From a virus, in UHGV virus genome UHGV-0210560: a stretch of DNA of 34,455 nt; one strand, 5' to 3'. The translations under genes were made by a program, and so were the position numbers. The notes beneath the pieces are model-generated. The model was not told the origin of the DNA, did no database searches, and saw only the letters and a list, made by a program, of their open reading frames with translations. This document shows positions 1-34,455 of this stretch, one piece after another. Every line of letters begins with the position of its first letter. The stretch's first letter is position 1.

Positions 1-126
1 CTGATTTTTTCCCCGCGTAAGCGGGGGGTGGCTCGATCAGAGCGCAAGCGCACGCGGTTGTGGATTGAAATAATAAAGTGGCGAAAGCTGCGAAGTAGAA
101 AGCTCTATCGAAAGATAGGGCTTTTT
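1..126 (+). ncRNA. 3' part of the small RNA: solitary type I-E-like repeat, type I-C-like 3' handle, ~28-nt spacer-like segment and terminator
   Basis: TTTTCCCCGC-GTAA-GCGGGGGGTGGCTC (7-34) resembles I-E repeats (CCCCGC-N4-GCGGGG stem); GTGGATTGAAAT (60-71) is the canonical I-C repeat 3' end; CTGAT (1-5) pairs with ATCAG (36-40). Confidence 0.65.
100..126 (+). terminator. Intrinsic terminator
   Basis: AAGCTCTATC-GAAA-GATAGGGCTT stem-loop ending in a T tract. Confidence 0.75.
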
Positions 127-4237: not shown

Positions 4238-4245
4238 GATGTTTT

Positions 4246-4345
4246 CTCCTTTTGTCAATTTTTTGTGGATTGAATTTTGTACCCTCTTTGGAGTACATCT
4301 ATACTATACGCCTTTATTATCGTAATGTCAAGGGGTTTTTGCAAA
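4246..4345 (-). promoter_or_regulatory. Promoter/operator/leader copy 1
   Basis: Minus strand TTGACA (4331-4326), 17 bp, TATAGT (4308-4303); TACG-N10-CGTA palindrome; near-identical to 5306-5405. Confidence 0.85.
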
Positions 4346-5297: not shown

Positions 5298-5305
5298 TTT
5301 TAGGT

Positions 5306-5405
5306 CTCCTTTTGTCATTTTTTTGTGGATTGAATTTTGTACCCTCTCTTAAGTACATTTATATTATACGCCTTTATTGTCGTAATGTCAAGAGGCTTTT
5401 GCAAA
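5306..5405 (-). promoter_or_regulatory. Promoter/operator/leader copy 2
   Basis: Minus strand TTGACA (5391-5386), 17 bp, TATAAT (5368-5363); palindrome TACGCCTTTATTGTCGTA at 5367-5384. Confidence 0.9.
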
Positions 5406-5430: not shown

Positions 5431-5671
5431 ATAACACACTTTATAACACACTTTTATTGCGTGCATATGAAAAAATATTTTTCCTGAGTGGATTCTTTCC
5501 CATACAAACGGCTTTGTAAAGCCATTTGTGGAGTTATGCCGTTGGAGAAAATAGTAAATTTATTTTAGAACGTGGGTTCGAGTCCCTCCTTCTCCGCCAA
5601 AAGAAAATCGCTTGTTTAAGCCAAAAACAAGCGATTTTTATTTTTGAAATAACACACTTTATAACACACTT
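5431..5671 (+). mobile_element. attP: attP: tRNA 3'-end core flanked by arm-type direct repeats
   Basis: GGGTTCGAGTCCCTCCTTCTCCGCCA (5574-5599) matches a T-arm, acceptor strand and CCA, most like tRNA-Ser; ATAACACACTTTATAACACACTT at 5431-5453 and 5649-5671; hairpin at 5604-5638; abuts the integrase stop. Confidence 0.85.
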
Positions 5672-10319: not shown

Positions 10320-11126
10320 ATGAAAGGTTACAAAGCATTTGACAAGGGGCTTGTGTGCCGCGGGAAACAGTATGCGGAGAACACGGCCTTTGAGGAGGAC
10401 GAAGCGGTTATTTGCCAAAAGGGTATGCACTTTTGCGCAGAGCCGATGGATGTGTTTGATTATTACCCGCCGGAAAGCGAGTTCGCCGAGGTGGAAGCAC
10501 CGGACGAAGCAGCGACCGATGATAACAGAAAGTATGTGACGAAAAAGCTTAAAGTTGGGTCGAAGATGAGTTTGAAAGAGCTTATAAGCGCACAGGTCGA
10601 AATTGATTTTGCAAAGGCAAAAGAGGAAGGCAACGGCAGTTACGCACCGGGCTACTATGGTCACGCCGCCGCACCGGGCTACTATGGTCACGCCGCCGCA
10701 CAGGGCGACTATGGTCACGCCGCCGCAGAGGGTAACTGTGGTCACGCCGCCGCAGAGGGTAACTGTGGTCACGCCGCCGCACAGGGCTACTATGGTCACG
10801 CCGCCGCACAGGGCGACTATGGTCACGCCGCCGCACAGGGCGACTATGGTCACGCCGCCGCACAGGGCTACTATGGTCACGCCGCCGCACAGGGCTACAA
10901 GGGTCACGCCTCTGTGGGCGGCAAAGATGCGATTGCCGCCGCTTTTGGCATAGCGGGCAAAGCTAAAGCCTGCCTCGGCTCGTGGATAATGCTTGCCGAG
11001 TGGGTGCTTATGGGCGACGGCTGGCACATCAAGACCGTAAAAACCGCCAAAATCGACGGCGAAAAGCTTAAAGCGGACACTTGGTATATACTTAAAAACG
11101 GCGAGTTTGAGGAGGTAAAGGAATGA
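10320..11126 (+). CDS. Hypothetical phage protein with internal 9-aa repeats
   Basis: MKGYKAFDK...GMHFC N-terminal domain; (GxYGHAAAQ)x10; IDGEKLKADTWY C-terminus. Confidence 0.8.
   Translation: MKGYKAFDKGLVCRGKQYAENTAFEEDEAVICQKGMHFCAEPMDVFDYYPPESEFAEVEAPDEAATDDNRKYVTKKLKVGSKMSLKELISAQVEIDFAKAKEEGNGSYAPGYYGHAAAPGYYGHAAAQGDYGHAAAEGNCGHAAAEGNCGHAAAQGYYGHAAAQGDYGHAAAQGDYGHAAAQGYYGHAAAQGYKGHASVGGKDAIAAAFGIAGKAKACLGSWIMLAEWVLMGDGWHIKTVKTAKIDGEKLKADTWYILKNGEFEEVKE
10644..10910 (+). repeat. 27-bp coding tandem repeat, about 10 units
   Basis: Variants of GGCTACTATGGTCACGCCGCCGCACAG. Confidence 0.95.
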
Positions 11127-32149: not shown

Positions 32150-32250
32150 TAAAATTTTTTGTGATACAAATAAGGCTGGGCAGGATAACCCTTGAGCAAG
32201 TGCCCGAAAAGTGGAGGGCAAGGGTGGAGGAGGCGCTGAATGAGCCTTAA
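32146..32250 (+). CDS. 34-aa CD1375-like protein (absent from the ORF track)
   Basis: IRLGRITLEQVPEKWRARVEEAL; ATGA overlap with the upstream gene. Confidence 0.6.
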   Translation: MIKFFVIQIRLGRITLEQVPEKWRARVEEALNEP

Positions 32251-34387
32251 CGACAACACAACGAAAATAGCAAGCGTGCTTGCAAAGGTGAACGCTTTGC
32301 CCGCGCAGCTTGACACTTCCGACGCCACGGCTGTGGCGGGAGATATAGTCGAGGGGCAGACTGCGTATGTAAACGGAGCTAAGGTGACGGGGACGCGATT
32401 AAAACCAAGTGAGGCTATCGCAAAAGGACTGACGATTGCAGGGGTGCAGGGTGCGGCTCACATTACAGGCGAGGCAACCGCAAATGTTGCAATCGACAAG
32501 GGCGGTAAAGTAAAAATAATAATTGCAGGAACGGAGCTTGGCGATGCGACCCCCGCCGATGTGGCGAAAGGGAAAACCTTTACGAGCCAACATGGAATAA
32601 AGCAGACAGGGACGAAGGAGGAAGCGGCAGCCGATACCATCCAGCACGCCGACATCCCGGACTATGTGAAAGCCGCGGCGCTTGAGGTAGCAAAAAAGGT
32701 AAAAACGGTGCAAACAGATGAAAGCATAACATTTATAGCCATGAGTGACGCGCACCAACTCGACACCACCGCAAACATTGTGACAGGCAACCTACACGCG
32801 GGAATGGCGGCAAAAATATTAGCTTATGCTATTCCGAATCTTGACTTTTGCTGCTATCTCGGCGACTACACAGCCGGAAGCAGCACAACCACTATAGCAG
32901 AGGGCAAGCAGCACTTCGCAGAGATAAACGCTGACATTGACGAGGCGTTTAAGGGGATTCCACAGTTTCGCACACTGGGAAATCACGACAGCCTGCAATA
33001 CTCCGCCACGCAGAACGGCAGCGTGCTTTCGGCGGCGGAGCTGTACGAGCTTGTAGGCAAATACTGCGAGGGCGCAACCTACGGCAGCACTACCGAGGGA
33101 TATTGCTATCGTGACTTTTCGACAAAAAAACTGCGTGTGATATGCCTTAACACAGCGGAAAATACGCAAAAGGAATATGTTTCGGACGCGCAAAAACTGT
33201 GGTTTGCAAACACTCTCAAATCGGTTGGCGCAAATACCGATTGGAAGGTGCTGATTTTGAGCCACCACCCGCTGGACTGGGGCGGAGTGTGCATACTCTC
33301 CAACATCGTCAAGGCGTATGTGGACGGCAACAGTATAACTGTGAGCAGCGGAAACGCCGTGAATTTCAGCGGCAGCAATAGCGCAAAAATACTTGCGGCG
33401 ATACACGGACACGTGCACTGCTTTAAGGCGGCGAAGCTCAACAGCATAGCAAACAGCACCGGTACTGAGTACAACACTTGGCGCATAGCAACGCCTAATA
33501 TGTGCTTCGCGCGGAACAACGAGTACGGTCAAAACGGCAATGCGGAGTATTACGGCATTGAGTTCGGCGAGGAGCAGACATACGCCAAAACAGCGGGCGG
33601 AGCAAACGATACCGCCTTTGTGGTTAATGTGTGCAATCCGAGCGAGGAAACGGTGCACAGCTTTTGCTATGGTGCAGGTTACGACCGCGAGGTCTTTACA
33701 GGCGTTCACACGGTGGCGGTTACTGGCGTAACCTTGAGTGCATCCTCCGGCGAGCTGCCTATTGGCGGACAGACGACACTCACGGCGGCAGTACAGCCGA
33801 GCGATGCAACAAACAAAGCGGTTATTTGGAGCAGCAGCGCACCGACGGTCGCAAGCGTTTCCGACGGCGTTATTACAGCACTTACTTCCGGCAATGCGGT
33901 TATTACCGTTAAAACAGTGGACGGCAATTTTACGGCAAGCTATAATCTCACGGTCAAAGCGGCAAGCTCCGACCTTATCGCAACCTATGGATATGCGGAT
34001 AATATGAGACTTTCGACGAGTTCAGGCTCAGAAAAACCCGCAAACGGGTATGTGGTACTCGGGCATAATTCGGCAATCCCGATTGATAAGGTAACATATC
34101 CTAATGGCGCGGTTATCCGCGTAAGCGGAGCAGATGATGTTGTGGGTAACAGCAGCCCTTATACTGATAGTGCGTGGGTTATGTACAAGACAGGCGGCAC
34201 AACGTTTAGTCAAGCATCGTATATCAAAGACAGCACGCAAGCAACTCACGCTTGTGGTACATTCACAATCGATTCCGACCGCAAGGGCTTTACGCTTGAT
34301 ATTGCTTCGCTCAGTGCTCCGCATTACATTAAATTCTGTTTCAAGGGCACTGGCGCAAATATTACAGCAACTTTGACGCCGAAATAA
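32240..34387 (+). CDS. Tail-associated protein with metallophosphoesterase and Ig-like (Big_2) domains
   Basis: SDAH, LGDY, GNHD, SHHP and HGHVH motifs; VTGVTL...ATNKAVIWSSS...GNAVITVKTVDG. Confidence 0.85.
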   Translation: MSLNDNTTKIASVLAKVNALPAQLDTSDATAVAGDIVEGQTAYVNGAKVTGTRLKPSEAIAKGLTIAGVQGAAHITGEATANVAIDKGGKVKIIIAGTELGDATPADVAKGKTFTSQHGIKQTGTKEEAAADTIQHADIPDYVKAAALEVAKKVKTVQTDESITFIAMSDAHQLDTTANIVTGNLHAGMAAKILAYAIPNLDFCCYLGDYTAGSSTTTIAEGKQHFAEINADIDEAFKGIPQFRTLGNHDSLQYSATQNGSVLSAAELYELVGKYCEGATYGSTTEGYCYRDFSTKKLRVICLNTAENTQKEYVSDAQKLWFANTLKSVGANTDWKVLILSHHPLDWGGVCILSNIVKAYVDGNSITVSSGNAVNFSGSNSAKILAAIHGHVHCFKAAKLNSIANSTGTEYNTWRIATPNMCFARNNEYGQNGNAEYYGIEFGEEQTYAKTAGGANDTAFVVNVCNPSEETVHSFCYGAGYDREVFTGVHTVAVTGVTLSASSGELPIGGQTTLTAAVQPSDATNKAVIWSSSAPTVASVSDGVITALTSGNAVITVKTVDGNFTASYNLTVKAASSDLIATYGYADNMRLSTSSGSEKPANGYVVLGHNSAIPIDKVTYPNGAVIRVSGADDVVGNSSPYTDSAWVMYKTGGTTFSQASYIKDSTQATHACGTFTIDSDRKGFTLDIASLSAPHYIKFCFKGTGANITATLTPK

Positions 34388-34388
34388 C

Positions 34389-34417
34389 TTGACAACCCCG
34401 CCCCGGTCTGCTATAAT
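34389..34417 (+). promoter_or_regulatory. Consensus sigma70/sigmaA promoter for a small non-coding RNA
   Basis: TTGACA (34389-34394), 17-bp spacer, TATAAT (34412-34417), just after the stop codon of the last tail gene; no ORF with a ribosome-binding site (RBS) before the terminator at 100-126. Confidence 0.85.
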
Positions 34418-34423
34418 GCAGTC

Positions 34424-34455
34424 AAGGGTTAATCCCTTTTGTCACCGCGTGAGCG
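34424..34455 (+). ncRNA. 5' part of a CRISPR-repeat-like small RNA (continues at position 1 if circular)
   Basis: 5' hairpin AAGGG-ttaat-CCCTT, then GTC-ACCGCGTG; ACCGCGTG (34444-34451) is the reverse complement of CACGCGGT (51-58). Confidence 0.65.

Follow-up and report, generated by a model that had tools for sequence, protein, structure and literature searches.

What would a phage do with an RNA that carries the CRISPR repeats of two subtypes, one folded inside the other? The question is raised by a short intergenic locus of the viral genome UHGV-0210560 (34,455 nt; "the window" hereafter means this whole stretch), where an initial annotation, made from the sequence alone, had placed a type I-E-like repeat within the stem of a type I-C-like repeat, the locus spanning the join of position 34455 with position 1.

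A structured RNA locus across the genome junction

The window is the circular genome of a temperate tailed phage: comparison of 40 ORFs with PHROGs recovered integrase, repressor, anti-repressor, terminase, portal, capsid, tail and lysis genes. The RNA locus sits between the last tail gene, which ends at 34387, and the XhlA-like, holin and endolysin genes (208-1459), which lie downstream on the same strand. The last tail-region protein (32240-34387) contains a calcineurin-like phosphoesterase domain (E 7e-6) followed by an Ig-like domain. Elsewhere, a tRNA-3'-end-like stretch beside the integrase gene (5571-5607), matched in many genomes, was labelled by inspection as the probable attachment site; a direct repeat of 101 nt (91%) occupies 4245-4345 and 5305-5405, and a 27-nt tandem repeat (10589-10966) lies within the ORF at 10320-11126.

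Reading the RNA across the ends presupposes that 34455 joins 1, as the initial annotation had assumed. The relatives confirm it: all six that were compared align continuously across the join (for L168, 96.7% over 1568 nt, starting 67 nt before it), and the exact 20-mer over 34455/1 recurs in an independent viral contig (L001), whose flanking genes differ and in which the cassette is unbroken. Between its two ends the window has no overlap of 8-199 nt. The window had also been described as free of cas genes and arrays, and indeed no cas gene was found among the 69 ORFs scanned (40 + 29) and no CRISPR-like family among the 20 largest repeat families shown for the window. The same ORFs include no known anti-CRISPR gene, and none adjoins the RNA locus.

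Judged from its sequence, the locus is a real, conserved and structured stand-alone non-coding phage gene, for which we infer transcription. All the sequence elements initially described are present at their positions, including the promoter and the terminator-like stem. On the plus strand, as are all elements below, a sigma-70-type promoter with an extended -10 (34389-34417) has its -35 box at 34389 and its -10 box ending at 34417, with 17-nt spacing and 12/12 consensus bases plus TG. Both boxes are retained in 11 of 12 relatives, L145 being cut at the -35, and the spacer between them is of two unrelated types. An intrinsic terminator-like hairpin with a T run (93-130) is paired in all relatives and is predicted to fold independently with a probability near 1, likewise in the 3' piece that a cut would leave. 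A second terminator-like hairpin lies at ~140-170, ahead of the lysis genes.

The predicted RNA of 160 nt folds at -69.9 kcal/mol, compared to -48.6 +/- 3.6 for 500 shuffles, none of which was as low (z = -5.9). From 5' to 3', the predicted fold comprises a 5' hairpin, two outer helices P1 and P2, a junction with the I-E hairpin and a small hairpin, the open I-C handle, a 5-bp hairpin and the terminator. P1 is 7 bp long (34444-34450 with 52-58) and P2 5 bp (34453-34455, continuing at 1-2, with 47-51); the pairing of P2 is kept through one double and several single changes. Downstream of the 3' arms of P2 (47-51) and P1 (52-58) come an extra T59 and G60, and the predicted Cas5d cut at 60/61. 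The small hairpin (31-43), which absorbs the end of the I-E handle, has pair probabilities of 0.89-1.0 and is invariant in 10 rows of the alignment.

The 5' hairpin stands at the predicted start (~34424), spans 34424-34438 and has four of its five pairs at probabilities of 0.83-0.91; it is paired in all alignment rows and shows no double change. Its start resembles that of the outer stem in a second family of nested RNAs (family B, below). In Firmicutes, 5' hairpins guard transcripts against 5' decay. The hairpin may be protective in this way, or possibly the relic of an I-C stem.

One element of the earlier drawing did not survive. An inner CTGAT/ATCAG helix is absent from the predicted fold, in which 34453-2 pair with 47-51 and the hairpin 31-43 forms. 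On the sequence of L120 the predicted structure reaches -63.0 kcal/mol and the CTGAT/ATCAG structure -51.1, and the latter helix shows no double change, which is a rough test given a gap in that alignment. Structure prediction thus suggests that this helix was probably drawn wrongly.

Other identities were considered for the locus. Rfam gave no match at gathering for the window; L163 had 14 weak matches, none at its family's threshold. A coding role for ORF 28-414 was rejected: it has no Pfam match, the frame crosses the terminator, and it is interrupted by a stop in L120 and L159. Four sequencing runs, probably of DNA, yielded low-depth pieces of 151-156 nt, some crossing the promoter or the terminator, and bear on expression neither way.

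The two repeat units and their counterparts in host arrays

Comparison with host arrays, which had been proposed as a check, was run on 401 genomes from the order of G001 (Ruminococcaceae), the likely host group. The entry into this order was a GTDB scan for the nested pattern, whose single match (L124) lacks an enclosing repeat context and was taken as chance. The best host-named relative of the terminase is a Faecousia MAG protein (74%), and the family in which we presume Faecousia to be placed links it to the sampled order. Matches to the structural half of the window occur in 26 of the 401 genomes, the long ones at 64-76%. Neither the 562 spacers from the fetched arrays, which matched the window in nothing beyond one 16-mer and the repeat mimic itself, nor nine short genome matches to the window, with no array in the stretches examined, pointed to a particular host. 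Both subtypes are present in the order, cas5d and cas6e occurring together in G351. The inner unit of the phage RNA matches a real I-E array (G077), and the outer unit matches I-C arrays in its ends (G345 among them).

The outer unit begins with GTC and the 7-nt 5' arm of P1 (34441-34450), which pairs with 52-58 at probabilities of 0.77-0.99; in this arm a G-C pair is changed to A-U in L156 and L170. The repeats of the G345 array open and close their stem with the same four pairs as P1. The 11-nt I-C handle (61-71), predicted to be single-stranded at a cost of 0.7 kcal/mol for staying open, is invariant except for a final T/C and ends like the host I-C arrays. GTC, the 7-bp stem and the 11-nt handle speak for a type I-C repeat, with one departure from host arrays: the extra U (T59) between the stem and the cut site is present in 13/13 family A copies, in 0/21 host arrays and in 0/11 family B copies. 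From the sequence, this base may shift, slow or block I-C cutting. By analogy it may instead be tolerated, as Cas5c cleaved a repeat lacking its first seven bases (PMC8524198). The I-C pattern was found in 91 of the 401 genomes (some of them single matches) and cas5d in 83. GTC precedes the handle by 74 nt in the window, compared to 19-23 nt in host arrays; the outer unit would consequently escape a search that requires a whole repeat at 90% identity. In two genomes, G174 and G109 (L177, L178), many single degenerate I-C repeats are dispersed over several contigs, away from arrays.

Behind the handle, a variable linker of ~6-7 nt, whose first two positions have the highest entropy, is followed at the spacer position (72-91) by a 5-bp hairpin (78-91) that is maintained by one double and several single changes.

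The inner unit, a type I-E repeat mimic (6-35), consists of a 6-bp hairpin (11-26), a predicted Cas6e cut at 26/27 and an altered handle (27-35). Its identity was upheld: 21 nt (7-27) are letter-identical to the repeat of a G077 array with a period of 61 nt, located ~2 kb from cas6e. By chance, ~1e-8 copies of this 21-nt core and 0.005 copies of the 12-nt I-C end would be expected in the window. Stem and loop are identical to the host repeat, L120 matches it at 24 of 28 positions, and none of 11 distinct relatives shows a change in the hairpin; compared to the 12 relatives, this unit has one additional G in the window. The handle differs from that of the host at 3 of 7 fixed positions in the relatives, and freeing it (27-35) is predicted to cost 7.6 kcal/mol. 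Since it is both altered and folded away, the inner unit is more likely to trap Cas6e than to build a whole I-E Cascade, as far as the model of the fold goes. Of the 401 genomes from the likely host order, 10 contain the I-E pattern, and cas6e was confirmed in 3 of 5 tested; four of the ten also show at least 6 I-C matches.

Conservation and recurrence of the nested arrangement

We searched viral and metagenome sequences for the I-E hairpin followed by the I-C handle. The 12 viral loci with this pattern comprised one of the family of the window (family A), five of family B and six without repeat context. The 31 metagenome loci comprised 11 of family A, 10 of family B (four of them repeating viral matches), L147, the pairs L165/L169 and L157/L167, and five ordinary arrays. 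When the order was reversed as a control, none of the 7 viral loci had repeat context, compared to 6 of the 12 in nested order. Family A thus amounts to the window and 12 further loci, 11 of them distinct. No GenBank phage or PLSDB plasmid record covers 80% of the cassette, and three further scans added no member: with the 5' hairpin (20 loci, the cassette only in L139), with handle plus linker (one unrelated locus) and with handle plus 3' hairpin (four loci, of which the one inspected is a known contig).

The cassette is found in about seven unrelated upstream and three downstream contexts, counting the window and the 11 relatives compared (L145 was omitted as too short). Where flanking genes are readable it lies directly behind a tail-type gene, and the flanks have been exchanged freely. 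Within the family, whose mean column identity is 83%, the proposed structure is kept throughout, in answer to the earlier suggestion that related phages be examined for covariation: 452/452 cells are paired, and three pairs, in P1, P2 and the 3' hairpin, are changed on both sides. The covariation score was reached by none of 500 shuffles, which ignore kinship, and controls with the structure slid along the alignment gave 20-63% pairing. Because the family A copies are close kin, the double changes represent few events.

Variability in the RNA body peaks directly behind the repeats: the two columns following the I-C handle reach 1.68 and 1.54 bits and the one following the I-E repeat 1.24 bits, and host I-E arrays likewise vary at the position next to the repeat end. 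Conservation therefore stops exactly at the real repeat ends, which suggests that selection follows these ends, as would be expected if Cas proteins read them. Two natural variants were seen: L154 has a 17-nt deletion in the 3' arm and keeps a 5-bp outer stem and both units, and L159 (~1966-1992) has an extra hairpin of 25 nt inserted in the junction.

The nesting itself, I-E inside an I-C stem, is not confined to the window, as it recurs with other stem sequences in family B and in L147. GTC and a 7-nt arm pairing at 7/7 positions with the arm before the handle are found in 12 of 13 family A copies, 9 of 11 family B copies and L147, a count that leaves out duplicates and L017, which is without a handle. 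These fully paired outer stems comprise eight different arm pairs and span 72-178 nt. In family B, RNAalifold recovered the outer stem, with three pairs changed on both sides. As comparative evidence, this recurrence across families is stronger than the covariation within family A.

Family B (including L113, L116, L117, L119 and L122) shares with family A the GTC, the outer stem, the inner I-E hairpin, the I-C handle and the variable linker. It differs in its stem sequences, in a canonical register without the extra U, in an added unit, counted in six loci, which we take to be II-C-like, and in its genomic place, head to head with small genes. L147 (~1590-1780) is a third, larger nested form, in which the 178 nt enclosed by the I-C stem include additional hairpins besides two I-E-like units. 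L165 and L157 did not pass the simple GTC test, although L165 still folds as a nested form. L165 and L169 (2001-2039) represent a compact version on a bacterial contig, near mobile-element-like genes, and L157 and L167 (2001-2047) a tandem unit, I-E then I-C, behind a promoter.

Five further loci (L022, L064, L070, L083 and L085) have one or two I-E units behind strong promoters, some within long flanking inverted repeats. A spacer of the I-C array in L164 matches one such solitary I-E unit with its own promoter in another phage (L022:594-627), over 33 of 34 nt and with TTC in front, so that on sequence grounds an I-C system appears to have taken a spacer from an I-E mimic.

A putative decoy for two CRISPR subtypes

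Solitary I-C and I-E repeats are known to inhibit CRISPR-Cas: the RNA anti-CRISPRs, or Racrs, include RacrIC1, RacrIE1/2 and RacrIF1 (Camara-Wilpert et al. 2023, PMC10651486), and RacrIF1 leads to an aberrant Cas complex (PMC10651486). According to the available text of that paper, Racrs are intergenic phage repeat mimics with their own promoter and no cas genes, with tested I-C and I-E members, each consisting of one repeat for one subtype (PMC10651486). The window RNA is likewise viral, intergenic and free of cas genes or an array, and it mimics the sequence and fold of host repeats (21 nt for I-E; GTC, stem and handle for I-C, with one extra U). It is not a solitary contiguous repeat: two subtypes are represented, one split around the other, the I-E repeat being built into the I-C loop. 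Its sequence suggests that it most likely works like a Racr, yet it falls outside the solitary-repeat definition.

We therefore propose that this one RNA probably acts as an RNA anti-CRISPR that decoys two host subtypes, I-C and I-E; binding, cutting and inhibition we infer along the following lines. The strong promoter would yield abundant RNA, in the lysogen or on infection. In the published work available to us, Cas5d recognises the stem base and the 3' overhang and tolerates loop changes, its cut after G21 leaving a handle of 11 nt, whereas Cas6e reads the stem-loop and remains on it (PMC8524198, PMC5965381). Only the I-C repeat could thus serve as the shell, with I-E inside I-C and not the reverse. 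Cas5d would bind by way of the free 11-nt handle and the foot of the outer stem, whatever the loop contains, and might cleave at 60/61; the fragment set free, from the handle through the short linker and the hairpin to the terminator, would lack a usable guide and would sequester Cas5d and its partners in an unproductive complex. The inner hairpin would capture Cas6e, which would cut at 26/27 and stay there, while P1 and P2 (11-12 bp) would keep the nicked RNA together: after this cut the pieces are predicted to stay paired (-44.5 kcal/mol, compared to -33.4 apart). The likely outcome, in which each protein stays at its own site, Cas6e at the inner hairpin and Cas5d at a handle without a usable guide, would be analogous to the aberrant complex of RacrIF1. 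Several points speak against such a decoy. The extra U, which departs from 21/21 host arrays, may weaken it; the I-E handle is altered and buried in the fold; I-E is rare in the sampled order (10/401 genomes); the locus has no anti-CRISPR gene as a neighbour; and the self-repressing I-C guides of hosts could offset plain sequestration (10.1101/2024.10.29.618823).

How far do other explanations account for the same RNA? It could be that either the I-C shell or the I-E hairpin is functional by itself, with the other unit left as a structural scaffold or as what remains of an earlier fusion. Several observations would fit: the I-C part has its extra U, the I-E handle is altered and hidden, I-E is scarce in the sampled order and L154 has lost 17 nt from the 3' arm. 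But both units are invariant at the protein-read positions in 12/12 relatives, both are retained in family B and L147, and L154 itself keeps both along with its 5-bp outer stem, so we hold this to be unlikely. The cassette might alternatively have a role foreign to CRISPR, separating exchangeable tail-fibre modules from the lysis genes as a recombination boundary and double terminator, or acting as some other sRNA. Its position just behind a tail-type gene wherever this is readable, its freely exchanged flanks and the second terminator-like hairpin at ~140-170 are in keeping with such a role, which nevertheless leaves unexplained the 21-nt identity to an I-E array, the complete I-C handle, conservation that stops at repeat ends and the same nesting in family B at a different genomic site; we regard it as very unlikely. 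Least probable, in our judgement, is a sensor in which host Cas binding or cutting would alter read-through into the lysis genes. The XhlA-like, holin and endolysin genes do follow on the same strand in the window, but this downstream context is common to only 3 of the 11 relatives compared, and the terminator is predicted to form on its own whether or not the RNA is cut.

A guide function would be of a different kind: after Cas5d cutting, the variable bases behind the handle would direct Cascade to repress a host cas promoter, as in the Cracrs, which must match a host CreR/CreA spacer at no fewer than 9 PAM-proximal positions (10.1101/2024.10.29.618823). The bases directly after the handle are indeed the most variable and A+T-rich, and host I-C loci of the likely order use self-repressing guides. 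We examined ~5 kb upstream of 80 cas5d matches (373,537 nt), among which the true host is perhaps not represented. Handle-like matches occurred in 25 of the 80 regions, and 20 of these 34 matches fit their own locus over at least 10 nt, 14 with TTC in front, a positive control indicating that CreR-like self-repression is common there and that the test works. CreR-like solitary degenerate I-C repeats are thus common upstream of cas5d in the likely host order (L242-L314), their matches to their own locus covering 12-18 nt. As for the phage RNAs, the linker of the window matches one site next to TTC, ~170 nt upstream of a cas5d gene (L310), over 9 nt, position 6 being mismatched, and so just reaches the length that Cracrs need; L156 has another match of 9 nt. 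These two family A matches are at chance level for the 80 regions. None of the 12 family A and 11 family B sequences has a match of at least 10 nt beside TTC in these regions, family A matches of at least 8 nt number 7 with TTC compared to 7, 12 and 6 with control triplets, and the 7 seed matches compare to 9.0 +/- 3.7 for shuffled seeds. Moreover, compensating changes preserve a hairpin in the would-be spacer from about position 7 onwards, which points to a structure and not to base pairing with DNA. A guide role is thus not supported among the 80 cas-upstream regions, and we think it quite unlikely. Two neighbouring ideas were also set aside: a viral mini-array against rival phages, as there is no second like repeat and the spacer region is structured and conserved, and a tracrRNA-like reading of the 5' and 3' hairpins, for which no support was found.

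The decoy that we favour has partial counterparts in other RNAs. Cracrs and Cracr arrays, as far as the accessible text describes them, also combine a viral repeat-like unit, a short spacer-like part and a terminator, with several units per transcript (Liu et al., 10.1101/2024.10.29.618823), but the units of one array always target one type (10.1101/2024.10.29.618823), whereas here I-C and I-E are nested in one RNA with no target above chance in the 80 regions. Host CreR mini-arrays and solitary repeats are degenerate single I-C repeats that keep the handle (Shmakov et al., 10.1101/2023.03.03.530964); in the available description they are part of cas loci, and a guide of 12-18 nt directed at the same locus occupies the place where the window RNA has a hairpin. 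The vsgRNA directed at Cas9 (10.64898/2026.06.01.729453) and rAcrIIA1 are compact composite phage RNAs made of CRISPR RNA parts, too, but the accessible accounts describe fusions of the crRNA and tracrRNA of one type II system, and no repeat-antirepeat or tracr part was identified in the window RNA. The words "nested" and "chimeric" have no match in the available text of PMC10651486, and four family motifs none in its nine supplements, of which the long files are perhaps incomplete. "Nested" is equally absent from the available texts of 10.1101/2024.10.29.618823, 10.64898/2026.06.01.729453, 10.1101/2023.03.03.530964 and PMC11656645.

All together, we lean slightly towards a wider proposal, in which phages have repeatedly built RNA anti-CRISPRs like Russian dolls: the loop that Cas5d ignores would carry mimics of other subtypes, so that one RNA would disarm I-C and I-E, with two units in the window and at least three in other phages, and with the extra U perhaps making a slow or uncuttable trap. 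The RNA anti-CRISPRs tested in the literature compared here, as far as its available text goes, each target a single subtype, and multiplexed viral arrays do not mix types. If the proposal is true, a multi-subtype inhibitor would be contained in 160 nt, and a class of phage counter-defence genes would go unseen in whole-repeat searches. The RNA also lends itself to a direct test of substrate reading by Cas5d and Cas6e, as both sites lie on one molecule and natural variants exist (the extra U, the L154 deletion and the L159 insertion), and the I-C loop, as a site for cargo, may serve compact guide design.
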